Source: Deltaproteobacteria bacterium RIFCSPHIGHO2_02_FULL_44_16
Lineage (GTDB): Bacteria > UBA10199 > 2-02-FULL-44-16
Assembly (NCBI GenBank): GCA_001798185.1
Contig: MGRM01000012.1
Coordinates: 88,120 to 152,119, forward strand
DNA: 64,000 nt
Reading direction: 5' to 3'
Shown: in pieces, positions 2,760 to 64,000 of the stretch
How the letters are laid out: each line of letters starts with the position of its first letter
Position numbering within the stretch: position 1 is the stretch's first letter
Notes under the pieces: model-generated
Told to the model about the DNA's origin: nothing
What the model saw: the letters and a program-made list of their open reading frames with translations, nothing else
Database searches by the model: none
Made by a program: the position numbers and the translations under genes

Positions 2760-2864
2760 AAGGTTGCTTCCTTATTGATTCCTTGTTGATGAGATGAACA
2801 AGAGCTTGATTGCAATTCATGAGTGATTCTGTTTGGATACTCTGTTTTCGCCAGGGAGAAGGAT

Positions 2865-5744
2865 ATGCGCCAGGAACTGGTCATCCGAGGGGCCCGGATG
2901 CACAATTTAAAAAATATCGATGTGACGATTCCGAAGAATAAACTCGTGGTCATTACAGGGCTTTCCGGGTCAGGGAAGTCGTCACTTGCCTTTGACACCA
3001 TCTATGCCGAAGGCCAGCGGCGCTATGTCGAATCGGTCTCAGCCTATGCTCGCCAATTCTTGGAGCAGATGGAAAAACCCGACGTCGACTCTATCGAAGG
3101 ACTCTCCCCTGCGATTTCGATCGAACAGCGCACAAGTTCCCGAAATCCTCGCTCAACGGTCGGTACCTCTACTGAAATTTATGACTATCTCCGTGTTCTC
3201 TTTGCTCGTGCGGGTCGGCCCCATTGTTACAAATGCGGACGTGCGATTCAGGCACAAACAGTTTCACAAATGATCGATCAGATTTTAAAACTCCCTTCAG
3301 GAACAAAGATCGGAATTTTAGCTCCGATCGTACGCGGCAGAAAGGGCGAATATACGAAGGATCTTGAACGACTGGCCCGACAGGGCTTTGTACGGGCGCG
3401 CGTTGATGGCAATGTGGTGTCACTCGATCAAAAAATCACGATCGATAAAAAGAAAAAACATAACATCGATCTTTATGTCGATCGGCTCGTGATTAAAGAT
3501 GATATCACCACGCGTCTTGCCGATTCTCTTGAAACTGCTCTCGGTCAAGGCGAAGGGCTTGTGAAGATTGAACTGATAAGCAATGCTGTCATTCCCGCGA
3601 AGGCGGGAATCTCAAAAAATTCACTGGATCCCCGCTTACGCGAGGATGACAATCAAGAAATTCTTTTCTCCGCAAAACATGCGTGTGCTTATTGTGGGCT
3701 CAGTTATCCCGAAATTAATCCTCAACTCTTTTCGTTCAACAGTCCTCGTGGAGCTTGCCCAGCTTGCGAAGGTCTTGGGACGCGACTCTATTTCGATCCG
3801 AATCTCGTCATTCCCAACCACAACCTTTCACTTCGCGAAGGAGCGATTGCGCCATGGCGAACAAAAGCTTCAACAGCCTATATTAATCTCTGCGAAGCGC
3901 TCGCAAAGCATTATGGATTCGATATTCGCACGGCATTTGCCAAACTTCCTCCTCACATTCAAAATGCGATTCTTATGGGTTCGGGGGAAGAAGAAATTAC
4001 CTTTGCCTTTGAAGGGACAGAACGAGAAAAAATAAAAACACGTTTTGAAGGAATCATTCCTCAACTCGAACGACGATGGAAAGAGACAAGCTCCATGGAC
4101 ATTCGTGAAGAACTCGAATGTTTTATGAATCGTCGTCCCTGTCCTACGTGCCAAGGAACTCGTCTTCGTCCTGAAGGAAGAAGTATTCTTATTGGTGGAA
4201 AAAACATTTCACACGTCACGGCATTTTCTATTCGCGAATGCATGCGTTTTATTTCGACGCTTGACCTCACCAAAAAAGAGGCAACGATTGCGGAAAAAGT
4301 TTTAAAAGAGATTCGTGAACGTCTCGGTTTTCTGATTGATGTGGGACTTGACTATCTCACACTCGATCGCACAAGTGGAACACTTTCAGGAGGAGAAGAT
4401 CAACGCATTCGACTGGCAACGCAGATTGGATCTGCACTTACGGGTGTTCTCTATGTCCTTGATGAACCTTCGATTGGTCTTCATCAACGCGATAATGATC
4501 GTCTTCTTCAAACCATGAAACGATTACGCGATTTGGGAAATACGCTTATCGTCGTTGAACATGATCGCGACACCATGGAGCACGCTGATCATATTATTGA
4601 TCTCGGGCCTGAAGCGGGTGTGAGGGGGGGCTATGTCGTTGCCACCGGAACTCCGAGTGATATCAAACGAAATTCTAAATCGCTTACCGGACAATATCTC
4701 TCTGGAAAAAAGAAAATCGATGTTCCACGAGATCGTCGCACTTCTTTGCTGGACGAACTTATTATAAAAGGAGCACGCGAGCATAATCTCAAAAACATCG
4801 ATATTTGTATTCCCTTGGGAGTTCTTACCTGCGTCACCGGAGTCTCAGGCTCGGGAAAATCGACGCTTGTGAATGAAACCCTTTTACAAGGTCTGAAGCA
4901 AAGACTCGAACAATCCAAGGAAACCGCAGGAAAGGTAGATGACATCATTGGATGGCAGAAGCTCGATAAAGTCATTGATATCGATCAGTCTCCGATTGGC
5001 CGAACTCCTCGCTCCAATCCCGCAACCTATACGAGTATTTTTACGCATATCCGCGATCTCTTTGCAGAACTCCCTCAATCGAAAGCGCGCGGATATAAAC
5101 CAGGTCGGTTTTCTTTTAACGTCAAAGGGGGCCGATGCGAAGCGTGCGAAGGCGATGGCATCATTCGAATCGAAATGCATTTTCTCCCCGACGTGCATGT
5201 CGAGTGTGAAGTCTGCGCAGGAAAACGCTTTAATCGCGAAACACTCGAGGTTCATTATAAAGGATCTTCTATTGCAGATGTTTTAAGTATGACCGTGAAT
5301 CAAGCTTTTACTTTTTTTGAAAATATTCCGTCGATTCATCATAAACTTCAAACGCTCATCGATGTTGGCATGGGCTACATTGAGCTTGGCCAATCAGCCA
5401 CAACTCTTTCAGGCGGCGAAGCTCAGCGCATTAAGCTTTCGCGCGAACTTGCGCGACGCGCAACCGGGAGAACTCTTTATATCTTAGATGAACCAACAAC
5501 TGGTCTTCACTTTGATGATGTGCGAAAACTCCTCACTGTCCTCAACCGGCTTATCGATCAAGGAAATACTATTGTCGTCATTGAGCATAACCTTGACGTG
5601 ATCATGTCTGCTGATTACTGTATCGACTTGGGACCTGAAGGGGGAGAAAAAGGTGGCTTTCTCATCGCCACAGGAACACCTGAAGAGCTTGCTGCCCACC
5701 CTACTTCATATACCGGATTTTATTTACGAGAACTTCTTTCATGA
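2865..5744 (+). CDS. uvrA: excinuclease ABC subunit A (UvrA); carries an in-frame repeat insertion
   Basis: two ABC ATPase modules ([25 protein letters not shown]; LSGGE signature twice) and zinc-finger cysteines CxxC; start taken at [17 protein letters not shown]. Confidence 0.95.
3588..3651. repeat. family-1 double-hairpin MITE-like element, inserted in-frame inside uvrA
   Basis: GTCATTCCCGCGAAGGCGGGAATC...GGATCCCCGCTTACGCGAGGATGACA; same element as the intergenic copies; adds the peptide [21 protein letters not shown]. Confidence 0.8.
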
Positions 5745-6697
5745 AACATTTTCTTGCGCTCATGACTTTTCTTTGTCTATGCAACCGACCTCTCATGGCT
5801 TCTACGGAACTTCGACAATTCGTTCAAGAAGCCGCGCTGACAGATGGATCTCTTCTTGAAATCACCATTGTCGATAATGCATCAGAAGAACAACGCGCCA
5901 ACACCACTATTGACCGCGCTCTTGCAGCGATTCGAAAACTCGATCAGGACTTCGGGGCTGCGCCCGCTGCTGCGACGGGAAACTTACATGATCAACTCAA
6001 TCATTTAAAGCCACATACCCCTTTGAAACTCCCCGAAGGTTATTTTCTTCTCTTTGAACAAGCCATTGAACTCGCAAAACTGACCAACGGATGGTTTGAC
6101 ATTACCGCTCCTTCAAAAAAAGGAATTTTTGTTCAGCGCGATTATCGTCGCGTTGAGCTACGTCCCGCTTCATCTGAAATGGTGCTCACCAAAAAACATC
6201 TCAAATTTGATCTTCGTTGGCTTCTCTCTGGAACAGCGTGCGATGCAGCGCTTGCGATCATTCAAGAAGCGGGTTTTCAGCGAGCGGAAGTGAAGGTGGG
6301 ACCTGTCTCCAAACATATCGGCCGAGATATTCACACGCCATGGGGACTTCAGATCGATATCCCAGGAGTTCAAGATGCGTATGCGCATCGAGCTTTTCAG
6401 TATCGCTTGTCGGATATTGCTGTCGCACAACTTATTCCTGAAAAAATAACTCCTCCTCTGATCGATCCAAAAACAAAAAATCCGGTGAAGGGACAAGTCA
6501 AAAGCATTACGGTGATGGCCAAAGATGCGCTCCATGCCATTGCGTTTGCAGTCGCAATAGCGCCCTTCGATGCTCTCACCGGTATTCGCTATCTTGAAAA
6601 ATTTCCAGGGCTCGAAGGAATTATTGTAGATCAAACAGGAGCACTTTTTATTTCTGAAGGATTGAAACAAAATGAGAAAAAGGAGAAACCAAAATGA
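5741..6697 (+). CDS. apbE: FAD:protein FMN transferase (ApbE family) lipoprotein
   Basis: signal peptide with a lipobox-like Cys; conserved IDPKT/IDPRT motif ([12 protein letters not shown]) followed by SITVMAKDA..; start overlaps the uvrA stop (ATGA). Confidence 0.65.
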
Positions 6698-6720
6698 AAC
6701 TTCTGAAAAATCACCGAGAA

Positions 6721-6806
6721 GTCATTGCGAGGAGCGTAAGCTCCGAAGCAATCTCCTGGAGATGCTCTGCTCGGGAGATCGCCACGCCCTTCGGGCTCGC
6801 GATGAC
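6721..6806. repeat. family-3 repeat, copy a (inverted orientation)
   Basis: reverse complement of GTCATCGCGAGCCCGAAGGGCGTGGCGATCTC...CTCGCAATGAC; its terminal ...GCGATGACA supplies the ATG of the downstream apbE paralog. Confidence 0.75.
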
Positions 6807-7731
6807 ACTCACTCGGACTTTTTTCAGAGGTATCTGCGCGTTAATCCTTCCTTTGCTATGGCTCTCTTTCTCATCATCTGCACACGCCCAAACAACAGAA
6901 GACATACGACAAATGAGTCGCCGCTTTGAAATCGGAAACTCTCAAGGGGCCATCATCATTTTAGGCTATGTCAAAGATCAGGCAACGATCGAGAAAATTC
7001 TCGAAATCGCAGCAGGTGAAGCAAAACGCCTTCATGAAATCATCGACTGGAAAAATCCCCAAAGCGAAGTCGCTCGTTTAAATCAAGTCAGTGGTTCCAA
7101 ATTTTATCCGGTGAGCAAAGAAGTGCTGAATATTTTTAAAGCTGCGGCCAGACTTTCCGAATGGACCGAAGGCGCTTTTGATATTGCCGCAGAGTCTCCG
7201 GTAGGCACGTATGAAAATATTAAACTCGATGAAAAAGGTTCGCGCGTACGTCTTCAAAAGAAAAAAATGACGGTTCGTTTCGACGCTATTTTTGATGGCT
7301 ATCTTGCCGATTACCTTATTCGCTATCTTTATGGAGCTGGCATCCATCATGCGATGGTCAAGGTAGGAAATACATTTCGTGGAGTAGGACGTTCGCTCAA
7401 CGGTCCCTGGCGCATTCAAGTTCAGGATGATGAAGGAACCTATGCGCATCGCGCCATGAAACTCACCGTTGGCAACGCAGGTGTTGCTACCGTCAGCGCA
7501 GCTCAGTTTCGCCAAACTCCTCCGATCGATCCCAGAACAAAGCAATCTCTTCCTGTCTGTTGCAAAGGGGCCACGGTTGCAATGAAGGAAGCCGCTCTCG
7601 CGCAAGGCATGGCATACACCATGTTTATCTTAGGTCCTCAAGGCGGTGTTGTTCTCATGGAGCAACTCGGTAATGCCAAAGGCATGGTCGCCGATAATGA
7701 AGGAAAATTTGTGAAAACGAGCGGGTTTTAA
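6802..7731 (+). CDS. FAD:protein FMN transferase (ApbE family) paralog
   Basis: signal peptide (LILPLLWLSFSSSAHA); IDPRTKQS motif; ATVAMKEAALA..; tandem paralog of the upstream gene. The long ORF start at 6694 reads through the repeat and was trimmed. Confidence 0.6.
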   Translation: MTLTRTFFRGICALILPLLWLSFSSSAHAQTTEDIRQMSRRFEIGNSQGAIIILGYVKDQATIEKILEIAAGEAKRLHEIIDWKNPQSEVARLNQVSGSKFYPVSKEVLNIFKAAARLSEWTEGAFDIAAESPVGTYENIKLDEKGSRVRLQKKKMTVRFDAIFDGYLADYLIRYLYGAGIHHAMVKVGNTFRGVGRSLNGPWRIQVQDDEGTYAHRAMKLTVGNAGVATVSAAQFRQTPPIDPRTKQSLPVCCKGATVAMKEAALAQGMAYTMFILGPQGGVVLMEQLGNAKGMVADNEGKFVKTSGF

Positions 7732-7795: not shown

Positions 7796-8068
7796 ATGTA
7801 TCACTATATTACGCTTAAAGAGTTGCGACCAAAGCTTCCCAAAGTGATTGAAAAGATTGACACAGCCCTTGAACGCTACATTATTTCCAAGCATGGAGAG
7901 CCTATTGCGATTCTTCTCGCACTCGACGATTTCGAAAGTCTTCTTGAGACTCTCAATGAACAAGAAGATAAAGAAAATTTAAAACGCATTCGAAAAGGGA
8001 TTCAAGAAGCTAAAAAAGGTAAAACCGTTGATTGGAAAAGCGTGAAGAAAAAATATCATCTTTCTTAA
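7796..8068 (+). CDS. Phd/YefM-family antitoxin
   Basis: 90 aa; YefM-like N-terminus (ITLKELRPKLPKVIEKI...ISKHGEPIAILLALDDFESLLETL). Confidence 0.7.
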   Translation: MYHYITLKELRPKLPKVIEKIDTALERYIISKHGEPIAILLALDDFESLLETLNEQEDKENLKRIRKGIQEAKKGKTVDWKSVKKKYHLS

Positions 8069-8084
8069 AGCATGTTTAAAGAGT

Positions 8085-8174
8085 GTCATCGCGAGCCCGG
8101 AGGGCGTGGCGATCTCTAGCAATCACTGTCTGCAGGAGATTGCTTCGTCGCTAACGCTCCTCGCAATGACATAC
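8085..8174. repeat. family-3 repeat, copy b, between the antitoxin and toxin genes
   Basis: GTCATCGCGAGCCCGGAGGGCGTGGCGATCTC...GATTGCTTCGTCGC...CTCGCAATGACATAC with terminal inverted repeats of about 11 bp. Confidence 0.75.
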
Positions 8175-8206: not shown

Positions 8207-8467
8207 GTGTATATCCTCGAACTCACCCGACAAGCAGAGAAAGCATTCGATGTCCTCATGCATGCGCAACCCCACATGGGAAAACGGGTCGCGATTGCCC
8301 TTGATCATCTCGCCAAAGACCCAGAAATAGGTATTCCTCTTCGAGGAGTATTGAAAGGATATTACAAATATCGCGTTGGCACGTATCGGATTATTTACGA
8401 GATTCAAAAGTCAAAACTGCTTGTCATTGTCATCGACATCGGCCATCGAAAAGAGGTGTACCGTTAA
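8207..8467 (+). CDS. RelE/ParE-family toxin (GTG start)
   Basis: 86 aa; C-terminal YRIIYEI...LVIVIDIGHRKEVYR is typical of the RelE/ParE superfamily. Confidence 0.7.
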   Translation: MYILELTRQAEKAFDVLMHAQPHMGKRVAIALDHLAKDPEIGIPLRGVLKGYYKYRVGTYRIIYEIQKSKLLVIVIDIGHRKEVYR

Positions 8468-9978: not shown

Positions 9979-10002
9979 AATGTTTCCTTAACAGAATATC
10001 GA

Positions 10003-10150
10003 AATGTCTCTCGGAGGCGTTGTCTCGCTACGGCAAAAATCCTCAGACGCCAGATTTTTGCCTGCGCTTCAGCCTGCCGGGTATTGAGGCTTCGTTTCCG
10101 GCGTCTGAAGACGCCGCTCGACAAACGCTTCCTGCGGCCATTTCGATATT
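10003..10150. repeat. family-2 ~150-bp structured element, copy a, intercistronic between pyrE and pyrF
   Basis: about 90% identical to 55402-55560; strong hairpins GGCAAAAATC..GATTTTTGCC and GGCGTCTGAAGACGCC. Confidence 0.75.
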
Positions 10151-10919: not shown

Positions 10920-12782
10920 TCATAACACAAGAAGCAAAAGAGCAAGGAGAAAAATCACACCAAATCCCATACAGGACGCAATATAGATGAGTTCTGATCG
11001 ATGTCGCACGAGTTTCACATTTCCATGAAACATTTCTTTTAGGAATCTTAAAGTACGTGCGCGAAGGTTCGGTGATTCCAAAAGATCTGCAAGAAAATAA
11101 TATCCATCAAAATCAAGGAGAGGACAGAGATTCAAAAGAACAACAACATACGAAAGAGAAGCAAAGAGGAGCGCAAGAGAATCGAACATCGCATGATCGA
11201 TTACGAATGCCATGATCGAAGCAATCCCGGCTGGAATCATATGAGCATAAGGGCCTGCGAGTGTAACAGACATGCGGGGGAAACGTGATGCAGTCCACAT
11301 ATCAGAGGTATCGACAAAAAACATGGGGCCGACCCAATACCAGCCAAAACCGACTCCAAGCACGCGACGTTGAAAATGTTTTACCGTGAGCGCATGCCCT
11401 GCTTCGTGAAAAAGAATGCTCATGAAAAAGAGAGGAAGAAGCCACCATAACCAGATGGGAAAAGTCATCGCACGCTGAAATGCAGAAACAATCGAAACCT
11501 TCTGAGACGAAAAGGAGAAAAGACCGAAAAGGACAACAGAGCCAATAATGCATTGGCCTTTTTTGGAAAAGAACAAACAAGATATTTTTTGGAAGATGCC
11601 TGCAATCCATGCATCAACATCTGAAATATAGTATCTCCACTGAAGAATGCGTGAAAGAACACTGAAACATAAAACGAGACGGGAATGGAACGTATTCTTC
11701 AAGTCTCTTGTTTTCGCATTCCTCCCCTCAATCATGCCTGCAGCACCAAGGTCACTTATTTGCTGGGCAATCACATGAGGGGCAAAAGCTTTGTATTTTT
11801 CAAAATAGGATAAGGTGAGTTCTTTGAGTGTATGATCACCATCGAGAAGTTCCCACAAAAACAATCCTTCTGGTGTCAGCCGATAATAAAGATGCGCCGT
11901 TGGATCGTTCAGGATGAAAGAACGAATTCCATCTTTCGTTTCATATTCTTGAATGATAATTGTTTTGCGTCGGCATGGACGATCGCGAAGTTGCAAAAGA
12001 TCAATAAATTGGAGTCGGGCGCTCGGCTCATCGTGCAAGAACTGAAGCAATGCATCGCGCGAAATAACGAGTAGCTCTGAAGGTTCAACGGCTTTGACTG
12101 TCGCATTTCGTTTCTCTCCTGAAAGCAAAGCCGCTTCCCCGAATGTTGCTCCGGTTTCAAGAAAAGCGAGGGGCTTTTTATTTCCCACTTGATCTGAAGT
12201 TGTCACTTCAACTTTTCCCTGTCTCAACAGATAACATTCTGATCCCATTTCTCCCTCGCGAAGAAGAATTTCTCCTGACCGAACACTTTTCGACTGAAGA
12301 GATGTTGCAAATTTTTTGAGTCGATCAGCCGAAAGTGAAGAAAAAGGAGAGAGTTGTTTCAGAAATGAGGCTCGAAGCAATATTTCGGCCGTCTCTTCAA
12401 AAAGTTTTTTTGCATCTGGCGACTCATCAAGAGCGGCAAGAAAATCCTCACGAGAAAGTGAAAGTGCATGAAGTGTGGTAAGAGCAAATACCGAAGCGGT
12501 CCGTTTTTGATGTTTTGAAAGAAGCGCAATCTCGCCAAAATATTCTCCTGGACCAAGTGTTGCCATGACGACTGGTCCTGAGGAAGATGAAACAGCAACT
12601 TCGGCTCTCCCCTGAAGGATCAGGAAAAAGCGCTCCCCTTCTCCTCCTTCAGCGACAATCTTCACTCCGGAAGAAAAAACCTCTTCCCGAAAATGTTCTG
12701 AAAAAAAAGAAAGCGCCTTGTCGGAAAATAAAGCAAACAAGGACGCTTTCTTGAGCAACCTGACGTAATCTTTGGATGTCAT
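10920..12782 (-). CDS. membrane protein with tandem cyclic-nucleotide-binding domains fused to a site-2-protease-like M50 metalloprotease domain
   Basis: two CAP_ED-like segments (FFLILQGRAEV..GEYFGEIALL and YLLRQGKVEV..GATFGEAALLSGEKRNATVKA); C-terminal hydrophobic helices with HEAGHAL (HExxH) and LLDFDG motifs. Confidence 0.7.
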   Translation of the reverse strand: MTSKDYVRLLKKASLFALFSDKALSFFSEHFREEVFSSGVKIVAEGGEGERFFLILQGRAEVAVSSSSGPVVMATLGPGEYFGEIALLSKHQKRTASVFALTTLHALSLSREDFLAALDESPDAKKLFEETAEILLRASFLKQLSPFSSLSADRLKKFATSLQSKSVRSGEILLREGEMGSECYLLRQGKVEVTTSDQVGNKKPLAFLETGATFGEAALLSGEKRNATVKAVEPSELLVISRDALLQFLHDEPSARLQFIDLLQLRDRPCRRKTIIIQEYETKDGIRSFILNDPTAHLYYRLTPEGLFLWELLDGDHTLKELTLSYFEKYKAFAPHVIAQQISDLGAAGMIEGRNAKTRDLKNTFHSRLVLCFSVLSRILQWRYYISDVDAWIAGIFQKISCLFFSKKGQCIIGSVVLFGLFSFSSQKVSIVSAFQRAMTFPIWLWWLLPLFFMSILFHEAGHALTVKHFQRRVLGVGFGWYWVGPMFFVDTSDMWTASRFPRMSVTLAGPYAHMIPAGIASIMAFVIDHAMFDSLALLFASLSYVVVLLNLCPLLDFDGYYFLADLLESPNLRARTLRFLKEMFHGNVKLVRHRSELIYIASCMGFGVIFLLALLLLVL

Positions 12783-12792
12783 TTTATATTGA

Positions 12793-12993
12793 TTACATCC
12801 CCTTATTCATTTTTGCTGTAAGCTGTTGATCATTTAATTTCCAGTCGATCTTGCGAAATGCATTTGTTTCTTCTGCCGTTAGCTTCACACCAGTTGATTG
12901 CAATGTTCCTATCGGGTTCTTTCGCATCTTCGTTCTAAAACCAATGTCATTCGCCCACTTCTCAACTAACATTTCAATCTCTTTGCGTGCCAT
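12793..12993 (-). CDS. small paralogous peptide 1 (66 aa), NHLP/Nif11-leader-like
   Basis: MARKEIEMLVEKWANDIGFRTKMRKNPIGTLQSTGVKLTAEE...; AGGAGG RBS 6 nt upstream of the ATG; trimmed from the longer ORF. Confidence 0.6.
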   Translation of the reverse strand: MARKEIEMLVEKWANDIGFRTKMRKNPIGTLQSTGVKLTAEETNAFRKIDWKLNDQQLTAKMNKGM

Positions 12994-13006
12994 TCTTCCT
13001 CCTTGT

Positions 13007-13210
13007 TTAAGCAAGCCATTTACTGACACGTGATTGCAATTCTTGATCACTCAACTTCCAATCAATGTTTTTAAAAGCATTCATTTCTTCTGGTGTCAGC
13101 TTCACTCCTGTTGATGTAAGCGTTGCCATCGGATCTTTTCGCATCTTGGTTCTGAAACCAGCATCACTTGTCCATTTTTCGACTAACATTTCAATTTCCT
13201 TGCGCACCAT
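13007..13210 (-). CDS. small paralogous peptide 2 (67 aa)
   Basis: MVRKEIEMLVEKWTSDAGFRTKMRKDPMATLTSTGVKLTPEE...; own RBS. Confidence 0.6.
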   Translation of the reverse strand: MVRKEIEMLVEKWTSDAGFRTKMRKDPMATLTSTGVKLTPEEMNAFKNIDWKLSDQELQSRVSKWLA

Positions 13211-13240
13211 ATAACCTCCCTATGATTTTCGTTCTCATGA

Positions 13241-13438
13241 CTAATACTTATTTATCCTTGCCTTAAGTTCTTCGTCATTTAAACTCCAGTCAATTTTGCG
13301 AAATGCACCCATTTCTTCGTTTGTTAGTTTCACTCCTGTCGATGTGATCGTTCCCATTGGATCTTTGCGCATCTTTGTTCGGAATCCCATATCATTCGTC
13401 CATTTCTCAACCAATCCTTCAATCTCCTTGCGCACCAT
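13241..13438 (-). CDS. small paralogous peptide 3 (65 aa)
   Basis: MVRKEIEGLVEKWTNDMGFRTKMRKDPMGTITSTGVKLTNEE...; AGGAGG RBS. Confidence 0.6.
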   Translation of the reverse strand: MVRKEIEGLVEKWTNDMGFRTKMRKDPMGTITSTGVKLTNEEMGAFRKIDWSLNDEELKARINKY

Positions 13439-13453
13439 ATATCCTCCTTTTGA

Positions 13454-13654
13454 TCAAGGTATCTTAGAAACTCTGGTTTTTAGTTCCTCATCACTTAGTT
13501 TCCAATCAATCTTGCGGAACACTGACATTTCTTCGGGGGTAAGTTTCACTCCCGTTGTTTGCAACGTGTCCTCAGGATTCTGCCGCATGTTCTTGCGAAA
13601 CATCTGGTCGTTCATCCACTTGTCGAACAACATGTCGATTTCTTTTTTTCCCAT
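13454..13654 (-). CDS. small paralogous peptide 4 (66 aa)
   Basis: MGKKEIDMLFDKWMNDQMFRKNMRQNPEDTLQTTGVKLTPEE...; GGAGGAGG RBS; trimmed from the longer ORF. Confidence 0.6.
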   Translation of the reverse strand: MGKKEIDMLFDKWMNDQMFRKNMRQNPEDTLQTTGVKLTPEEMSVFRKIDWKLSDEELKTRVSKIP

Positions 13655-14621
13655 CGTCCTCCTCCTTTGAAAAAAATGAAGCGTTGCGAATAAGCTTCTG
13701 CAGCACTTTTGCTGCAGGCTCAAAAGGTCGCGCTTCCATAAGCGCAGAACGTGCTTTCTCGCAATAAATTTCAGTCACAATCGCTGTCATCCACTTTGCT
13801 CCTGTTGCACTCAGCTGTGTTTGAATTGCACGTCGACTTTTGAGAGAAGATTTTGCATCTTGAAGCGACGTCAAAAAAATTTGCTTTTCCACTCCCTTCA
13901 AACGCTCGAGACAAAAAGCGATTGGAAAGGTTCTCGTGCCATTGGAGATATCCTTACTCTGTTGAGATTCAAAAAGATCATAACAATCTGACGAAAGTTG
14001 ACCCGCAACACCAAGAGCCCTGGCGTATGCCATATAATGTTCAACACATTCTGGATGAGCATTTGCCGTATGTGCTGCAAGGGCTGCAAACATCGCTAAT
14101 TCCTCGCCACTCTTTTTCATGACACTTAACTCAACTGCGTTCGTCGATACTTTACTCTTGTTCACAGATGCAATGTCTTGTTGCTGTCCATCGCTCATGA
14201 TGAGGAGCCCACGCGCAATCGTTTCATGCATGAGATTTTTCTGCTCATGCGAAAGAGAGAGTTTTGCAAGAAGAAGGTGAGGAAACGTGCTGACAAGTGT
14301 TGTTCCTAATATCAATCCTTCTTGAGGAGTTAATTTTCCCTCGTGTTGCAAATCTCCATCCGCAAGATCATCGAGGATATCGATTCCCAAATAGAGTATT
14401 GACGTGAGAACTGGAAGCAAGATGGGAACTTTTTTTGCGGTAATCCCCTCATAGACAGCCGATGGAAGCGAAATAAAGAAAAGTTCACTCTCTTCCGAAA
14501 CGTAGGTTTGAAGACGTTCAACAGCATATGCAAAAAGCCGTCGCTGTTCAGAAGATTGCGACCAGGAAGAGAGTTCATCTTGAAGACGTGACAGAACTTC
14601 AGATGTTTCCGAAGACTTCAA
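13572..14621 (-). CDS. trans-isoprenyl diphosphate synthase-like (polyprenyl synthetase fold) protein
   Basis: first Asp-rich motif DILDDLADGD at the expected position; second motif degenerate (GQLSSDCYDLFE); the 3' end overlaps peptide 4 by about 80 nt in another frame. Confidence 0.55.
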   Translation of the reverse strand: MKSSETSEVLSRLQDELSSWSQSSEQRRLFAYAVERLQTYVSEESELFFISLPSAVYEGITAKKVPILLPVLTSILYLGIDILDDLADGDLQHEGKLTPQEGLILGTTLVSTFPHLLLAKLSLSHEQKNLMHETIARGLLIMSDGQQQDIASVNKSKVSTNAVELSVMKKSGEELAMFAALAAHTANAHPECVEHYMAYARALGVAGQLSSDCYDLFESQQSKDISNGTRTFPIAFCLERLKGVEKQIFLTSLQDAKSSLKSRRAIQTQLSATGAKWMTAIVTEIYCEKARSALMEARPFEPAAKVLQKLIRNASFFSKEEDDGKKRNRHVVRQVDERPDVSQEHAAES

Positions 14622-21796: not shown

Positions 21797-21815
21797 TTAG
21801 GTGCCGTGCACTTAA
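21797..21815. repeat. REP palindrome (RAYT-associated type)
   Basis: TTAGGTGCCGTGCACTTAA, same motif as the copies flanking the RAYT gene. Confidence 0.6.
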
Positions 21816-21953
21816 CTGGGAAAATTCTGATCTCTATTGCTTCAATCACCATTTTGGGGATAAAGGTGAGGAGGATCAAAAGCCGTTATTGTTCGCAACT
21901 TTTTTTCGAGAGCAACGATAATAAAAACGTCAGTGATACTGTAAAGGAATCTT

Positions 21954-22557: not shown

Positions 22558-24075
22558 ATGCTTGCTCAAGTTTACGCCGCTGCACTCGTGGGAATCGAAA
22601 CGCAACTCGTCGAAGTGGAAGTCGACGTTCAAATGCAAGGCCTTCCTGGTTGGAGCATGGTCGGTCTCCTTGAAACCGCGGTCAAAGAAGCGCGCGATCG
22701 CGTGTTGCCAGCGCTTCGAAATTCTGGATATAAACTTCTCAATCGTCGCACCATTGTAAATCTCGCTCCAGGAAATGTGAAAAAAAGTGGAGCTCATTTT
22801 GATCTCCCCATCGCCATCGGCATGCTCACGGCCTGGAATATTTGCAAACCTCATCCAGACAAACGCTATCTTCTGGCTGGCGAATTATCGCTGACGGGAG
22901 AACTTCTTCCCATTAATGGCGCGCTTCTCATGGCTATTGCTGCGCGGGCTCATCAACTCACGGGCATTATTCTTCCGGTTCAAAATGAAGAAGAGGCAAA
23001 ACTTGTCACTTCAACAGAAGTTGTTGGATTTTCAACATTGACCGAAGTCGTTCAATTTCTCAATGGAGAGTTTGTTCCCACAAAACAGATGCCTCCAAAA
23101 AAACAAAAACGAACTGCGCCGCCACTTAATTTTGGAGAAGTGCGCGGTCAGCCGATCGCGAAACGCGCGCTCGAAATTGCTGCTGCGGGCGGACACAACA
23201 TTTTGATGGTCGGAACACCTGGCTCTGGAAAGACAATGCTTGCAGAGAGATTACCCACAATTCTTCCTCCACTGACTTCTGAAGAAAAATTGGAAACGAT
23301 GAAGGTCTTAAGTCTGCATGGACTTCTTCACGATACGATTCTTTCTGACGAACGCCCTTTTCGTGCTCCGCATCATTCTGCTTCGTATGCAGGGCTTATC
23401 GGCGGCGGTGGAGGGATACCGAAACTTGGAGAAATTTCGCTCGCACACAATGGCGTTCTGTTTATGGATGAGCTTGCTGAGTTCAATCGTAATGTCTTGG
23501 AAGTTCTGCGTCAGCCACTCGAGTCTGGTCTCGTCCGTCTTGTTCGCACTGGAGCGAGCGTCACCTATCCTGCTCGCTTTATGTTGGTGGCTGCGATGAA
23601 TCCGTGTCCTTGCGGATATTATGGTCATCCAAAACGTGCGTGTATTTGTAATATGCATCGTATTCAGCATTATCGACGAAAAGTTTCAGGACCACTGATT
23701 GATCGAATCGACATTCACATTGAAGTCGAACCAGTTCCTCATAAAGATCTGATGGGAGATAAACCGACAGAAACATCTGAGATGATTAAACAGCGAGTCC
23801 TCGCAGCACGAAAAATTCAAGAAGCACGCTACGATTCACGCATTGGTTGTAATGCTCAACTCCATGCTCGTGATTTAAAAAAATTCTGTCCTTTTAAAGG
23901 AAATGCAGAATCGCTTCTCGAAAAAGCGACCGAGAAAATGCACCTCTCAGCTCGCTCAACCCATCGCGTATTGAAAATTGCCCGAACCATCGCCGACCTC
24001 GAATCCTCCGACGCCCTCGGCCCACCTCATATCGCCGAAGCACTGCAGTATAGGCCTACGGATGATGTGCATTAA
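22558..24075 (+). CDS. comM: Mg-chelatase-like AAA ATPase YifB/ComM
   Basis: N-terminal MLAQVYAAALVGIETQLVEVEVD; Walker A GTPGSGKT; C-terminal ChlI-like region. Confidence 0.85.
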   Translation: MLAQVYAAALVGIETQLVEVEVDVQMQGLPGWSMVGLLETAVKEARDRVLPALRNSGYKLLNRRTIVNLAPGNVKKSGAHFDLPIAIGMLTAWNICKPHPDKRYLLAGELSLTGELLPINGALLMAIAARAHQLTGIILPVQNEEEAKLVTSTEVVGFSTLTEVVQFLNGEFVPTKQMPPKKQKRTAPPLNFGEVRGQPIAKRALEIAAAGGHNILMVGTPGSGKTMLAERLPTILPPLTSEEKLETMKVLSLHGLLHDTILSDERPFRAPHHSASYAGLIGGGGGIPKLGEISLAHNGVLFMDELAEFNRNVLEVLRQPLESGLVRLVRTGASVTYPARFMLVAAMNPCPCGYYGHPKRACICNMHRIQHYRRKVSGPLIDRIDIHIEVEPVPHKDLMGDKPTETSEMIKQRVLAARKIQEARYDSRIGCNAQLHARDLKKFCPFKGNAESLLEKATEKMHLSARSTHRVLKIARTIADLESSDALGPPHIAEALQYRPTDDVH

Positions 24076-24090
24076 GTGCCGTGCACTTAA
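24072..24090. repeat. REP palindrome overlapping the comM stop
   Basis: TTAAGTGCCGTGCACTTAA. Confidence 0.65.
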
Positions 24091-24111
24091 TTGAGAAAAA
24101 AGAGGCTTATA

Positions 24112-24741
24112 ATGCCCCGCTACCCCATAATTCATATTCCCGACGGAATTTATTCAGTAACCAGCAAATGCAACAATAATGAATTTCTCTTTGACGCTGA
24201 AGAGAAGTTTCAATTGTATTTACATCATCTCCTAGAATGTAAACGCAAATTGAATTTCATTATCTATGATCTCTGTTGTATGTCGAACCATGTGCATGAA
24301 CTTTATCGTGTCACCCGTGGAATTACGATTGCGGATATTCTTCACACCGTTCGTGGACATTTTTCTCAAAAATTTAATACTCGTTTTGGGCGAAGCGGAC
24401 ATTTTTGGAAAAGCAAACCTTACTATCGTATTGTTGAAGACGAGCAATATGCATTTCATCTCATGAATTATTTTCACTTAAATCCTGTAAAGGCCGGCCT
24501 TGTTGATAAACCTGAAAATTGGCCTTATTCAGGATATCGCTTTCATATGCTCGGGGACCGAAAAGGACTTATGGGGAGACTACTTAATCAAATTCCTGGA
24601 ACTTCGAAATCCACAACATCAGTCGATTCTGAAAACTTGTATTTGAACAAGTTACTTCAACGACGTCGATTACGATTTATTGGAACAGAAGAGTTTATAA
24701 ACAGCATGCAGACAAGATATAAACGAGATAGCGAGAAATAA
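24112..24741 (+). mobile_element. REP-associated tyrosine transposase (RAYT, IS200/IS605 TnpA-like HUH Y1 transposase)
   Basis: MPRYPIIHIPDGIYSVTS N-terminus; HuH motif SNHVHEL; YFHLNPVKAGLVDKPENWPYSGY catalytic-Tyr motif; flanked by REP palindromes. Confidence 0.8.
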
Positions 24742-24815
24742 GTGCCGTGCACTTAAATGAAAAAATTCTCGCTTTAAATGCATTTTTCTTCCAAATAAGT
24801 GCACGGCACTTAAGT
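24739..24815. repeat. inverted pair of REP palindromes (BIME-like) immediately 3' of the RAYT gene
   Basis: TAAGTGCCGTGCACTTAA at 24739-24756 and the inverted copy TAAGTGCACGGCACTTAAG at 24797-24815, separated by about 40 bp. Confidence 0.65.
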
Positions 24816-38687: not shown

Positions 38688-40331
38688 CTAATGATGAAAA
38701 TGCCGTTTACCGGTGAAGACCATGGCGATATTATGTTCATTGGCAGCTTCAATGACTTCATCATCGCGAAGAGAGCCACCGGGTTGGATGATGGCTGTGA
38801 TCCCTGCTTTTGCTGCAATATCAACACCATCACGAAAAGGAAAAAAGGCATCCGACCCCAGGGACTGCGTCCCTCTTCTGGGTATTTTTTGGGAGTTCAA
38901 TTTTTTAATTGCTTGTTCAACTGCATCCACTCGACTTGTCTGGCCAGCGCCGATACCAAAGGTTTGATCTTCTGATGCAATCACAATGGCATTAGACTTC
39001 ACATGTTTACACAGTCTCCATGCAAAGTTAAGAGCTACACCCTCTTCCTGGGATGGTGAACGTTTGGTCACGATTTGATATTGATGAATGTTTTCTTCTC
39101 CCACATCTCGATCTTGAACCAGCAAACCACCTGCAACTTTGCGAAGGGTCAATCCTGGAGAAGCTCCTCGTTTTCCTAAACCCTCCACTTCCAGCAAACG
39201 AAGATTTTTTTTCTTCGACAAAAGTACTTTTGCTTCATCTGAAAACGATGGCGCCAAAATCACTTCAAAAAAAGTTTCCCCGATCGCCTCTGCAGTCGCT
39301 TTATCGAGTTCTCGACTCAGCGCCACAATACCACCAAAAGCCGAAAGCGCATCGGCATCTCGCGCTTTGCAAAATGCATCCGCGAGAGACATTGATGAAA
39401 CTGAGGCCCCGCAGGGATTTGCGTGCTTGATGATGACAGCAGCAAAAGGAGCATCATTGAAATCTTTGATCACCGAAAGAGCCGCATCAGCATCCATAAT
39501 ATTGTTGTAGGAGAGCTCTTTCCCGTGAAGTTGTCGCGCATTGAAAATGCTTGGCTCAGACAAACTGTCATTCCCGCGAAGGCGGGAATCTCCTGAGATC
39601 CCTGCTTTCGCAGGGATGACAACCATATTACTCACATCACGATAGAGCGCAGCTCTCTGATGCGGATTTTCTCCATATCTCAAGGCTTGCGCCTTTTCAT
39701 AGATAAGTCCTAGCGTTTTGGGGAAATCTGCAACCTTTTCTTCATTCTCAAATCCAGTAAGATAGTTTGCAATCGCTGCATCATACCGAGCCGTCGTTGC
39801 AAAAACTTTTTGTGCTAAACGGAACTTCGTTCCTTTCGAAAGTTCTCCCTGATTTTTTTTCATTTCTTCAAGCACCGACACATAATCAGCATGATCCACA
39901 ATAACCGCAACATCGTGATAATTCTTCGCAGCAGCGCGAAGCATGGTCGGACCACCGATATCGATATGTTCGATGGCGTGAGACAAGGAGCAACCATCAG
40001 CAACGGTTTTTTCAAAAGCATAGAGATTGACCACAACAAGATCGATCGTCTCGATCTTTTGTTCTTTCAGTTCCTGCAGATGAATTTTGTTTTGACGAAT
40101 CGCAAGCAGACCACCATGAATTTTCGGATGAAGTGTTTTCAGTCTTCCATCGAGAATTTCAGGAGAACCGGTGTAATCGGAAACATCTCTCACTACAATT
40201 CCAGCATCTCGCAAAACTTTTGCCGTTCCTCCGGTCGAAAGAATTTCAACGCCAAGCGCGGCAAGCTCTTGAGCAAAAGCAACAATGCCGGTTTTGTCGG
40301 TAACACTGATAAGAGCACGTTTGATTTTCAT
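38688..40331 (-). CDS. purH: bifunctional AICAR transformylase / IMP cyclohydrolase; carries an in-frame repeat insertion
   Basis: MGS-like N-terminal domain; YGENPHQ; ELSYNNI; AICARFT C-terminal domain. Confidence 0.9.
39557..39612. repeat. family-1 double-hairpin element inserted in-frame in the purH interdomain linker
   Basis: GTCATTCCCGCGAAGGCGGGAATCTCCTGAGATCCCTGCTTTCGCAGGGATGACAA; adds [19 protein letters not shown] between YGENPHQ..LYRDVSN and ..[12 protein letters not shown]. Confidence 0.8.
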
Positions 40332-50899: not shown

Positions 50900-50961
50900 A
50901 AAGGTTGCGTCAATTTTTACTTTTTACCTGTTCCATAATATGCGGGGCGTCGGTGAGGGGG
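50900..50961. repeat. proximal direct repeat, which is the authentic purF 3' end
   Basis: see 49083-49136. Confidence 0.8.
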
Positions 50962-52295: not shown

Positions 52296-52324
52296 AGAAT
52301 AAATCCTTTAGTTAGGGTCTGATG

Positions 52325-52486
52325 TCATCGCGAGCCAAAAGGGCGTGGCGATCTGACCGAAGGTCATCCTGAGGCAAAGCCGAAGGATCTCCCGGAGATC
52401 CCTCGCTTTCGCTCGGGACGACACTTTGTGTCGGATTGCTTCGTCGTCCCCCAAGATTCGTGGGGGACTCCTCGCAATGACATACA
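52325..52486. repeat. family-3 repeat, copy c; composite form with a nested insert about 75 bp long
   Basis: family-3 termini GTCATCGCGAGCC...CTCGCAATGACATAC enclosing GTCATCCTGAGG...CTCGCTTTCGCTCGGGACGAC. Confidence 0.7.
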
Positions 52487-55401: not shown

Positions 55402-55560
55402 CCAAATTCAAAACGTCTCTCGGAGGCAACCTCTCACTACGGCAAAAATCCTCACACGCCAGATTTTTGCCTGCGCTTCAGCCTGCTGGGTATTGAGGCT
55501 TCGTTTCCAGCGTCTGAAGACGCCGCTCGAGGCTCGCCTCCTTCGGCCGTTTTTAAATTA
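55402..55560. repeat. family-2 structured element, copy b, intercistronic between purS and purQ
   Basis: about 90% identical to 10003-10150. Confidence 0.75.
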
Positions 55561-61958: not shown

Positions 61959-63224
61959 ATGCGTGCAATTGGTGACAGCACAATAGTTGTAAGAGGACCT
62001 CAGATAGGAGAACATATGATCTTTTTACCTTCTGCGGGACAAAAAGTTTCACAGCACGAGATAACAGCTTCTCTTCGAGAAGCTATTCCAACGCTCAGTA
62101 CTTCTGAAGCCTTGAGCATTGTAGAAGCAATTGATCATGAAGAAGGAGTTGGCCAAGGCGATGGTTATTTAACGATAAAGAACAATTCATCGATAAACAA
62201 TTTTCGAAATCTCGTCGAACTTCGACTCTGCACATTCTCCGATGAAGCTTATGATAAAAGAACTTGCCGATGGAGTGATATTTCCGCAGTTGAACAGACT
62301 CTACGTCAAAAACTGATTGATCCACATCTCGTCGATGAAGAGCCTCTGACAACTTCTGAGCTTGCTCAAAAAATTGTTCAACGAGCAAAATTTCTTGGCC
62401 ATGAACCAAAATTACTTGGCAATGAAATAACTCTTCATGAAGCGCATCAAATAGCGGTCGCTGTCCAACAAGAAGAAGATTCCATAGACGGACTCATTAC
62501 TCCTCGCTCTTCCGATGCAGCGTCCAAAGCACAATTGCGAGATCTCATTACTGCTCGACTTCCAATGTATGCAGGAAATGAAAACATTATTACTGCCCTG
62601 TCAGCTGCACTGGATCCTTCTATTGCTTTGTACATCCCCAATGAAAATCAAATTGAAGATTCGGATCTACCACCTCTCTATGTCGGAGCGACAATGGTTA
62701 TGCCCACCGATACAGAAGGACTTCTGCAACTCATTACAGTACTCCAGGCGCAAGGAGGAAGGACTGCAGCGATTTCCCTGGGAGGGTTAAGATCCATGTT
62801 AATCGGAAGCACAGAAGCGCTTGCTCGCGCACCGAGGGAATTTTTTTATGCTCTTGGACAAGCTCTCGTATATGCGCGCAGAATTCATCCTGATCAAGCA
62901 TTTGCCAGCTTTGTTACAGCAACTTCTTACCGCATCAGCACACTTCTTCCTTCAACATCTTACGGTTCGATAACACAACCGAAACTTTTAGCACGGTTAG
63001 TAAGCCTTTCAGCCCTTACTCTTCGTGCGGAAATGACAAATATAATGTTGAGAGGGCAAGCAGTTACACCGATTGTTCTTATCAATGCTCAGCAAGTCAA
63101 TCAACAAGTGGCAAATAGTACCGGGATACCATTAGCACGCGCTGCGGTTTTGGTCACGGGAGCTTTTATATTCGGCTTTGGAATTGGTGCTACTGTTTGT
63201 TATTTCAACAGAGATGACGAATAA
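61959..63224 (+). CDS. hypothetical protein (421 aa) with a C-terminal hydrophobic segment
   Basis: ORF only. Confidence 0.35.
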   Translation: MRAIGDSTIVVRGPQIGEHMIFLPSAGQKVSQHEITASLREAIPTLSTSEALSIVEAIDHEEGVGQGDGYLTIKNNSSINNFRNLVELRLCTFSDEAYDKRTCRWSDISAVEQTLRQKLIDPHLVDEEPLTTSELAQKIVQRAKFLGHEPKLLGNEITLHEAHQIAVAVQQEEDSIDGLITPRSSDAASKAQLRDLITARLPMYAGNENIITALSAALDPSIALYIPNENQIEDSDLPPLYVGATMVMPTDTEGLLQLITVLQAQGGRTAAISLGGLRSMLIGSTEALARAPREFFYALGQALVYARRIHPDQAFASFVTATSYRISTLLPSTSYGSITQPKLLARLVSLSALTLRAEMTNIMLRGQAVTPIVLINAQQVNQQVANSTGIPLARAAVLVTGAFIFGFGIGATVCYFNRDDE

Positions 63225-64000
63225 GTTTCTCACCAGCTTCTTTCCCAAGTTCTTTTGCTTTCGATTTCTTTCCCTTTTTCTGAACTGAGAAAAATTTTTC
63301 CCCTTTGGCACCAGCGAGAAAAGCGTTCAAAAGAATTTCATCTCCTTGCACTCGCGCATAAGCACCAACGGGAGTGTGGCAGTCGCCACCGATGGCTTGA
63401 AGTAAAGCTCGTTCGGCTTCGGTTGCAATCCAGGTCTCTTCGTCGTTAAAAAGTTTTTGAAGAACTCTTATCAGTGCTTGATCATTCTCTCGAGTTTCAA
63501 GTGCAAGCGTTCCTTGCCCGATGGCCGGAATGAAACGAAAAGTTTCAAGGTATTCAAAATGCACGATATGCTGGCTGCTGTGAAAGTTGTTAAGAATGTC
63601 ATCGCGAGCCCGAAGGGCGTGGCGATCTCCTGAAAGCACTGTCTGCATGAGATTGCTTCGTCCCCTTCGTTTCTTCTCAGGGTCCTCGCAATGACCTTCA
63701 GACTCTAATATTCCAAGCCGCTTGAGTCCTGCTGCCGCAAGAACAATGGCATCAAACTCTCCTGCTTCAAGTTTTTTAAGTCGGGTATCGACATTGCCGC
63801 GCATCGGAACAATTTCAAGATCAGGGCGCAGTCGCTGTAACTGAATCCGCCGGCGAGGACTCGATGTTCCGAGCTTCGCTCCCTGAGGCAACATCGGTAG
63901 GGGCACACGGCCGTGCGCCCCTACATCAGTAGGGCCACATACTATCACGACATCCCTTGCATCCTCACGCTTAGGTGTGCACGCAATTGTCAGTCCTTTT
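63205..64000 (-). CDS. hemC: porphobilinogen deaminase (partial; N-terminus lies beyond the window end); carries an in-frame family-3 repeat
   Basis: LGTSSPRRRIQLQRLRPDLEIVPMRGNVDTRLKKL, AIVLAAAGLKRLG and IPAIGQG match HemC; the ORF is open to the window edge. Confidence 0.8.
   Translation of the reverse strand, partial: KGLTIACTPKREDARDVVIVCGPTDVGAHGRVPLPMLPQGAKLGTSSPRRRIQLQRLRPDLEIVPMRGNVDTRLKKLEAGEFDAIVLAAAGLKRLGILESEGHCEDPEKKRRGRSNLMQTVLSGDRHALRARDDILNNFHSSQHIVHFEYLETFRFIPAIGQGTLALETRENDQALIRVLQKLFNDEETWIATEAERALLQAIGGDCHTPVGAYARVQGDEILLNAFLAGAKGEKFFSVQKKGKKSKAKELGKEAGEKLIRHLC
63598..63695. repeat. family-3 repeat, copy d, in-frame inside hemC
   Basis: GTCATCGCGAGCCCGAAGGGCGTGGCGATCTCC...CCTCGCAATGAC; encodes ...LSGDRHALRARDD... 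in a region absent from canonical HemC. Confidence 0.8.

Follow-up and report, generated by a model that had tools for sequence, protein, structure and literature searches.

A putative inverted dimer of CGTC/TGTC-tagged REP hairpins carried in frame within hemC of a groundwater 'Deltaproteobacteria' MAG

Palindromic repeats that lie in frame within housekeeping genes are already known, both from Rickettsia and among the GTAG and CGTC REPs. The Rickettsia elements, or RPEs (Ogata 2000, 2002; reviewed in PMC10969869), are palindromic repeats inserted in frame in housekeeping genes. CGTC REPs (Di Nocera, De Gregorio & Rocco 2013, BMC Genomics 14:522; PMC3733652) have a terminal CGTC tag, which is TGTC in many repeats, and the recorded tag variants include TGTC and CCTC. 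Their stems start with complementary A-T residues and their tails are CCA. They are found in 5 phyla and fall into four families with uninterrupted 8-9-bp stems and 4-5-nt loops, mostly arranged as HH dimers (tags outside) and often as heterodimers. No dedicated transposase is reported for them, and intragenic copies occur in several species. The same study identifies Rickettsia RPE-6 as CGTC-1, RPE-4 as CGTC-4 and Neisseria dRS3 as CGTC-1.

Here we describe a repeat of this general kind within hemC. The stretch analysed, which we call the window, comprises 64,000 nucleotides, and hemC reaches beyond its end. The gene, the insert and its parts are arranged as follows.

63205-64000, reverse strand: hemC (porphobilinogen deaminase / hydroxymethylbilane synthase), C-terminal 264 codons plus stop
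63597-63695, reverse strand: inserted REP dimer, 33 codons, from G187 (two of its three bases) to D219
63598-63629, forward strand: REP unit 1 (C-type), GTCAT-CGC-GAG-CCCGAAGGG-CGTG-GCG-AT-CTC
63630-63648, forward strand: spacer between the REP units, 19 nt, CTGAAAGCACTGTCTGCAT
63649-63695, forward strand: REP unit 2 (T-type, inverted), whose longer inner module, TCCCCTTCGTTTCTTCTCAGGG, sets the 98-nt subtype apart
63571-63596, reverse strand: codons for (I)LNNFHSSQ beside the core, without counterpart in homologues and with pLDDT <50 through residue 228
63696-63707, reverse strand: codons for LESE, plus the first base of G187, placed by alignment on the other side of the core

The palindromic core measures 98 nt (63598-63695; GTCATCGCGAG...CTCGCAATGAC), or 99 nt with the invariant flanking T at 63597. 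On the coding strand, the insert takes in the last two bases of codon G187 and everything up to and including codon D219, and the T-type REP unit comes first in the hemC mRNA. Unit 1 is predicted to fold into a tag, a 5-bp stem, an internal loop, a 4-bp stem, a 3-nt loop and a 3-nt tail, and its C-type arm is near-invariant across all copies. The insert dimer as a whole is predicted to form a long hairpin (-39 kcal/mol, z -3.4 to -4.0), and the corresponding hairpins of all four copies in the window have z values of -3.4 to -6.9. By its sequence, the hemC element is an HH (tags-outward) inverted dimer of two CGTC/TGTC-tagged REP hairpins.

The arms of this family, hereafter family 3, have the form tag(C/T)GTC - AT - NGC - GAG - inner hairpin - G(TG/AA) - GCN' - AT - 3-nt tail. 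In a set of 704 units drawn from many genomes, 76% have CGTC as the tag and 19% have TGTC, and the 3-nt tail is CCA in 527 (75%) and CTC in 119 (17%). The tag is unpaired in the predicted fold of the units and the stem begins with AT, giving (T)GTC-AT...AT-CTC, as in the published class. Positions N and N' form a Watson-Crick pair within the unit in 697 of the 704 (C-G 363, T-A 324, G-C 10), whereas the same position is Watson-Crick between the two units in 16 of 288 dimers, in a sample that is dominated by one genome, Rhodocyclus, so that the co-variation may partly reflect shared descent. Heterodimers of a C-type and a T-type unit account for 266 of the 288. Single REP units are thermodynamically weak (z -1.4 to +0.7) whereas the whole dimer folds strongly; the view that each unit folds alone therefore rests on the co-variation.

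Each family-3 unit has a 5-bp outer stem followed by a 3-nt internal mismatch (GAG/GTG or GAG/GAA) and then a variable inner hairpin, which is either a 4-bp stem with a 3-nt loop or a longer module. These units lack the uninterrupted 8-9-bp stem and 4-5-nt loop of the published CGTC REPs, and with their interrupted, longer stem we place them as a variant within the CGTC-REP superfamily. The window contains a second repeat, TGTCATTCCCGCGAAGGCGGGAATC..., in five copies, whose unit is predicted to fold like a typical CGTC-1 REP, with a tag, an 8-bp stem, a 4-nt loop and a tail, and thus conforms to the published stem and loop sizes; in-frame copies of this sister CGTC-1-type family are present in uvrA and purH. 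The first-pass annotation had called family 3 a second, unrelated repeat family that tolerates coding insertion. Set against the repeat in uvrA and purH, this view does not hold, because both families have the TGTC tag, the AT stem start, the 3-nt tail and the tags-outward dimer, and so belong to the same CGTC-REP superfamily.

Family 3 resembles the CGTC REPs in its unpaired CGTC/TGTC tag, its A-T/T-A stem start, its CCA/CTC tail and its HH dimers with a spacer, and also in being dispersed, often within operons, with some copies in genes. It differs from the four described families in its interrupted, longer stem and variable inner hairpin, and its arm is also found in Nitrospirota and Patescibacteria, which adds to the phyla reported in PMC3733652. 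The part of that paper's supplementary tables available to us lists neither hemC nor the peptides LAMT, PRND and VIAS. The tie between family 3 and the RPEs runs through the statement in the same paper that RPE-4 and RPE-6 are CGTC REPs.

RPEs, like the hemC insert, add extra peptide segments that are compatible with the fold, and do so in unrelated housekeeping genes. The hemC insert, as far as the sequence and the AF2 model indicate, likewise appears to be an in-frame insertion at a fold-compatible site. The coding fraction of RPEs is high, and so is that of the window, where 3 of 10 REP-type elements lie inside housekeeping genes (uvrA, purH and hemC). The hosts differ, in that RPEs are carried by an obligate intracellular alphaproteobacterium whereas the hemC insert comes from a groundwater MAG. 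RPE-1, at about 150 bp, is also the longer element and its peptide is conserved, whereas family 3 uses three different frames.

Two inverted REP hairpins that make one larger hairpin are likewise found in REPIN/RAYT systems (GTAG REPs; Nunvar 2010, Bertels & Rainey 2011, Quentin 2018, PMC6006769), and both those hairpins and family 3 probably act single-stranded. REPIN/RAYT systems have a GT[AG]G guide tetranucleotide at the hairpin's foot and copies flanking the RAYT gene, neither of which is seen in family 3. ERIC, Correia/NEMIS and QMITE1 elements (Delihas 2007; Wachter 2018, PMC5896051) are also small and non-autonomous, with inverted termini and in-frame copies in genes, but they have target-site duplications and IS-like terminal inverted repeats (TIRs), and we found none of these in 23 copies of family 3. 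An intein, an intron and programmed bypass were considered for the hemC insert and dropped, as it has none of their features and is of the same kind as the intergenic copies.

Rfam returned no family for the whole window at gathering scores or for 63500-63800 at E<=10, and a full-text literature search with the terminal sequences recovered unrelated primers only. There was no match in phage records and none among 2.9 million viral contigs, and plasmid records gave two partial matches (Methylocystis) that are without annotation. These searches lend no support to a phage or plasmid vector for the element.

Three further family-3 elements are present in the window, one of them with a second palindrome inside it.

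8085-8170, forward strand: 86-nt copy between a phd/yefM antitoxin gene and a parE toxin gene
6721-6806, reverse strand: 86-nt copy at the 5' end of an ApbE-family ORF (6694-7731), open as VIARSVSS...GLAMT
52324-52481, forward strand: 158-nt copy between purL and purF
52363-52422: 60-nt related palindrome, GTCATCCTGAGG...CTCGGGACGAC, nested in the spacer of the 52324-52481 copy

The sequence GTCATYGCGAG occurs exactly 8 times in the window, at both ends of the four elements. When one mismatch is allowed there are 10 matches, whereas 100 shuffled sequences gave a mean of 2.5 and never as many as 10. Over 71 nt the hemC copy shares 90% identity with 8079-8149, over 67 nt it is 84% complementary to 6744-6810, and the four copies align across both arms. 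The copy that starts at 52324 is long because of the related palindrome nested in its spacer. These shared termini bear out the first-pass annotation's family-3 repeat at 63598-63695. All four of the elements it listed are real, but two of its ends have to be moved, from 8174 to 8170 and from 52486 to 52481, and the purL-purF copy starts at 52324.

More copies came from a metagenome scan that required both arms and the 19-nt spacer and that returned 21 loci, most of them on scaffolds of IMG record Ga0155275. The copy-bearing contigs match the window in GC content (44.1% versus 44.2%) and in tetranucleotide composition (r=0.992, compared with 0.985 between the two halves of the window), which indicates that they come from the same or a near-identical organism, the groundwater 'Deltaproteobacteria' MAG. 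This brings the number of distinct copies to 23, of which 4 are in the window and 19 in the contigs of this organism. All 23 are tags-outward dimers and all have T at base -1 of the core. The left arm is nearly invariant, and the right unit contains one of several alternative inner hairpin modules. Core lengths are 77, 83, 85, 86, 95, 98 and 101 nt, and in three further copies (143, 153 and 158 nt) an additional REP-type palindrome is nested within the spacer. Most of the organism's copies have a 19-nt spacer, a length that the scan pattern itself demanded. A sibling of the 98-nt subtype at L139:5900-5997 is identical to the hemC copy at 89 of 98 core positions.

Several further copies lie directly upstream of start codons, where the ORF finder merely reads through them.

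The arm itself is distributed much more widely. A scan of one genome per species with the pattern GTCATCGCGAGNNNNNAGGGCGTGGCGATC gave at least 120 stretches, and exact matches to this 30-nt arm pattern (25 fixed bases) are found in Alpha-, Beta- and Gammaproteobacteria, in Nitrospirota, in a Bdellovibrionales MAG and in Patescibacteria. The matches listed also include Inquilinus limosus, Sterolibacterium and Thiobacillus, the complete 'Deltaproteobacteria' MAG CP064976, and MAGs of Woeseiaceae, Hydrogenophilales, Nitrospirota, Bdellovibrionales and Patescibacteria (among them a Gottesmanbacteria MAG). Across genomes the centre of the element varies and the two arms do not. Rhodocyclus purpureus DSM 168 carries numerous copies spread over many of its scaffolds, and these often form tandem arrays that repeat every 144-245 bp. 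An ORF census over the copies in the first 120 stretches listed was uninformative, since Rhodocyclus, with its 67% GC and tandem arrays, yields long spurious ORFs.

The product of hemC is a recognizable porphobilinogen deaminase. It matches Pfam Porphobil_deam (4.7e-37) and Porphobil_deamC (9.8e-17), and solved HemC structures are retrieved in a PDB search at 3e-37. The window product is 100% identical to a full-length HemC of 349 aa (P0001) that is annotated as coming from 'Deltaproteobacteria bacterium RIFCSPLOWO2_02_FULL_44_10'; the proteins that come next in similarity share 44% identity with it and have a length of about 300 aa. When it is aligned with 11 homologues, every invariant column is kept, including D79, R134, R135, R152, R158 and the cofactor cysteine C292. 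The protein thus has both domains, the cofactor cysteine and the catalytic Asp/Arg residues expected of a HemC. The AF2 model has a pTM of 0.82 and is confident apart from residues 112-115 and 187-228, which are the only residues with pLDDT <50. It superposes on 1pda, 4mlv and 5ov6 with target-normalised TM scores of 0.87-0.90, and on the E. coli, B. megaterium, V. cholerae, Arabidopsis and human enzymes with target-normalised TM scores of 0.77-0.91. In this model the porphobilinogen deaminase fold is otherwise normal around the insert, and we infer that the insert-bearing enzyme is still active.

From 63999 onwards the reading frame is uninterrupted until its stop codon at 63205-63207, and both junctions of the insert are in frame and run into conserved HemC sequence on each side. 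The insert loop is 42-45 residues longer than in the 11 homologues and in solved HemC structures: LKRLG and EYL are about 51 residues apart in P0001 and about 6 in the homologues, and residues 178-183 of B. megaterium HemC align opposite query residues 98-148. Taken together, the homologue alignment and the AF2 model indicate that the insert loops out in domain 2, between the helix that ends in AGLKRLG and the next strand (VHFEYL). The modelled loop would lie on the protein surface, and the charged segment gained by the enzyme is probably disordered or a loose helical hairpin. By comparison with its relatives, the segment is not native to HemC, since it is absent from the 11 homologues and from all solved HemC structures and the same DNA occurs in non-coding positions. 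The first-pass annotation had proposed an insertion between AGLKRLG and IPAIGQG that leaves the ORF unbroken, and its placement, its quoted peptide and the foreign origin of the segment are all upheld. Its figure of about 30 added residues fits the core, with 33 codons, but falls short of the whole loop. Two tryptic peptides predicted from the insert-bearing HemC, SNLMQTVLSGDR and DDILNNFHSSQHIVHFEYLETFR, would be markers of insert translation.

With 42-45 extra residues and a core of 33 codons, 9-12 residues are not explained by the core. They comprise ILNNFHSSQ and perhaps LESE, the latter being possibly native and possibly derived from the element. About half of the other copies have common outer flanks, with TTTRCAAAGRRT before the element and ATAC..CTTTGCAAA after it. 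The hemC flanks match these shared flanks no better than random window sequence does (p about 0.2 on each side), which gives no significant support to a longer version of the element as the possible source of the extra residues.

No insertion-free allele or close ortholog is present in the searched databases, in which the next match is 44% identical, so the insertion event is deduced from the homologues. The insert is found in every assembly and in all recovered alleles. An identical 349-aa protein is encoded by 14 assembled contigs, and the six of these that are listed belong to six separate samples, with assemblies from ENA and JGI. Within the 90% cluster there is one other full-length member (P0122), which also has the insert and whose one substitution lies outside it. 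An assembly or binning artefact, in which a repeat was collapsed or spliced into hemC, is conceivable in metagenome-assembled data with a multi-copy repeat, all the more as contig L128 joins the halves of two kinase paralogs exactly at an element copy and could be a chimera, but it is scarcely credible for hemC given this agreement between contigs and samples and the in-frame junctions with conserved HemC sequence on each side.

We consider it very probable that hemC contains a CGTC/TGTC REP dimer that was inserted in frame and is passively carried, which is the best explanation of these data. A small, non-autonomous REP dimer would have inserted into hemC where the gene encodes a loop of the C-terminal part of domain 2. 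Together, the element and its tag base would have added 99 nt in a frame without a stop, which is why the gene would have stayed open. The insertion would since have been carried passively, as selfish or neutral DNA at a permissive site, in the manner of the Rickettsia RPEs. Survival within genes would require a frame-preserving length, a stop-free frame and a site that tolerates the excursion, and hemC appears to offer all three.

The elements most plausibly spread as single-stranded hairpins, with an enzyme acting in trans; this is suggested by the co-variation within units, by the lack of duplications and by the parallel that the literature draws with GTAG REPs and RAYTs. The window does contain a RAYT gene at 24091-24741, which matches Pfam Y1_Tnp and scores 84.1 bits with NCBIfam REP_Tyr_transpos (cut-off 80). 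The hairpin on its flanks, TAAGTGCCGTGCACTTAA, is of another kind than the TGTC REPs, so nothing ties this RAYT to them.

The strongest competitor to passive carriage, though itself quite unlikely, is that the insertion has been exapted, so that either the mRNA hairpin (through stability, pausing or RNase processing) or the charged loop (through a protein contact) is now functional. That all recovered alleles have the insert would fit such a role, as would the strength of the RNA hairpin (-39 kcal/mol, z about -4), and REPs are reported to influence mRNA stability and termination. Two paralogous hybrid histidine kinases of the same organism also both keep an in-frame copy, located between the first receiver domain and the C-terminal receiver-like region. 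These kinase copies are, however, in the opposite orientation to the hemC copy and encode CHREPEGRGDL...APRND, and the 6721-6806 copy is open in a third frame at the 5' end of the ApbE-family ORF. The three coding copies of family 3 thus have three different frame and orientation combinations and no common peptide, which argues against a selected peptide. The insert segment is of very low confidence in the AF2 model, and nothing sets the hemC copy apart from the intergenic ones; it is neither more nor less diverged than they are (89/98 to its sibling).

A second possibility is that hemC is decaying or has been inactivated by the insertion, with the open frame a recent accident. There is indeed a second, small insertion in the gene, a 28-nt GTAG...CTAC palindrome at 63897-63924 that could have contributed; it has no second copy in 248 kb of the organism's DNA and is at most a candidate repeat. 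The larger insertion begins 8 residues past the conserved Arg of AGLKRLG, which we take to be E. coli R176, important in chain elongation. Against decay, all 349 codons are open and every invariant residue is kept, the fold is confidently predicted outside the inserts, and hemD is intact 4.3 kb away. That 14 contigs encode one and the same protein, and that P0122 differs from it by one substitution located outside the insert, also speaks for a maintained gene, and we regard decay as very improbable compared with passive insertion into a working enzyme.

The element could also be a classical MITE, that is, a deletion derivative of an IS moved as double-stranded DNA by a DDE transposase acting on the 11-bp terminal inverted repeats. 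Its 11-nt terminal inverted repeats, its length of 77-158 nt, its dispersal and its nested insertions are all of this type. Yet no target-site duplication of >=3 nt was found at any boundary offset in the 23 copies, and no transposase gene or IS partner was evident by inspection at 12 low-copy loci (Patescibacteria, Nitrospirota, Bdellovibrionales and other MAGs). The apparent TIRs are parts of two self-pairing units in which the internal pairing co-varies and the inter-arm pairing does not, and the tag, AT stem start and tail match the definition of a REP. A MITE origin is thus most unlikely, and the REP-dimer assignment is the one we retain.

The core length is 2 mod 3 in 20 of the 23 copies and in 8 of the 10 length classes, intergenic copies included, a pattern that was noticed post hoc, and sampled copies usually have three or four of six frames open. 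We think it unlikely, if worth stating, that the TGTC REP dimers of this lineage are adapted to coding sequence and that the near-invariant 30-nt arm implies a conserved CGTC-REP mobilisation machinery.

The hemC case opens no new mechanism. What is new is the host, the target gene hemC and the structurally extended CGTC-type unit. The window clearly exemplifies, outside Rickettsia, how palindromic selfish DNA can lie in frame in essential genes, with hemC, uvrA and purH all affected within 64 kb. It extends the CGTC-REP class to units with a longer, interrupted stem and adds the phyla Nitrospirota and Patescibacteria to its range. For annotation, it means that the recurrent peptides '...VIAS..GLAMT', '..HCE..RSNL..RHALRARDD' and '..CHREP..PRND' are translated REPs.

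Two dimers of the window's other REP family, the CGTC-1 type, which belongs to the same CGTC superfamily as family-3 (Di Nocera 2013), lie in-frame within genes:

3586-3651, in uvrA (2823-5744, plus strand): CGTC-1-type REP dimer (TGTCATTCCCGCGAAGGCGGGAATC...), in-frame
39565-39621, in purH (38688-40331, minus strand): second CGTC-1-type dimer, in-frame

The uvrA dimer encodes 23 residues and is placed with the UvrA_inter domain on one side and the UvrA_DNA-bind domain on the other; uvr genes have already been recorded as REP carriers (Di Nocera 2013). The purH dimer encodes 20 residues, and the match of the purH product to Pfam AICARFT_IMPCHas extends over 344 residues against a profile of 311 positions.

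In addition to its family-3 element, hemC contains a second palindrome:

63897-63924, in hemC: GTAG...CTAC palindrome, 28 nt (GTAGGGGCGCACGGCCGTGTGCCCCTAC on the coding strand)

This palindrome coincides in position with a second HemC insertion, of 8 residues (VGAHGRVPLP), at which residues 112-115 have pLDDT values below 50 in the AF2 model. The palindrome looks like a GTAG-tagged REP, and 248 kb of the host organism's DNA yielded no other copy. The window also encodes a REP-associated tyrosine transposase (RAYT) with hairpins of its own:

24091-24741, plus strand: RAYT gene (NCBIfam NF047646, 84 bits; Pfam Y1_Tnp)
~24073-24091, 24740-24758, 24794-24812 and 21799-21817: RAYT-associated hairpins

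The RAYT gene is bordered by its own palindrome, TAAGTGCCGTGCACTTAA, which carries neither a GTAG nor a CGTC tag, and its neighbours are a comM-like Mg-chelatase gene on one side and addB/addA-like genes on the other.

The 23 family-3 copies in the window and the metagenome loci L127-L147 fall into 10 length classes. Counted without the flanking tag T, the core has a length of 2 mod 3 in 20 of the copies and 8 of the classes, intergenic copies included (binomial p ~0.01, calculated post hoc). Copies in Rhodocyclus purpureus DSM 168 do not keep this phase, with lengths of 112, 113, 126, 127, 131 and 132. In that genome these REP dimers also occur in long tandem arrays, with periods of 144-245 bp (L026, L048, L081, L091 and many other loci), which ORF finders turn into repetitive pseudo-proteins (...VIASPQGVAIQ...RRYAPRNDG...).

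A possible start codon (6694) precedes the family-3 copy at 6721-6806, and the stretch after this copy encodes what resembles the signal peptide of an ApbE-family protein. An ATG at 6801-6803, within the terminal CTCGCGATGAC of this copy, would yield M-TLTRTFFRGICALILPLLW..., and the element may thus supply the start codon of the ApbE-family ORF. The copy at 8085-8170 separates a Phd/YefM antitoxin gene (7796-8068) from its ParE toxin gene (8207-8467); it lies in the 138 nt between them, within an operon of a kind that is normally tightly coupled.

Other features of the window are the following:

12793-13723, minus strand: four tandem small genes (65-89 aa) for Os1348-family NHLP-clan RiPP precursors
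10920-12782, minus strand: gene adjoining the precursor genes; its product has a pair of cNMP-binding domains as well as an M50/HExxH intramembrane protease region
9999-10150 and 55408-55559: direct repeat, 152 nt, 87% identity
49095-49136 and 50920-50961: perfect direct repeat, 42 nt, overlapping the 3' end of purF

The precursor genes score 52-63 bits against NCBIfam NF038399 (cut-off 40), and the genes at 10920-13723 are likely to constitute a RiPP cluster. Neither direct repeat is a member of the REP families.

Two paralogous hybrid histidine-kinase genes carry a family-3 element at the same linker (L134, L141 and L128), followed in both by ~40 near-identical bases. In metagenome contig L128, the left portion of one paralog runs into the right portion of its counterpart exactly at the element; either the paralogs recombined at the repeat or the assembly is chimeric there.

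Spacers of family-3 dimers also hold nested related palindromes, at 52363-52422 in the window, in a 143-nt copy (L139) and in a 153-nt copy (L142). In one of these three copies the spacer holds a CGTC-1-type dimer. Because the same GTCATCCTGAGG...CTCGGGACGAC insert occurs in the other two, which are separate copies, the family-3 dimer and its nested insert seem to have been copied together as one unit.
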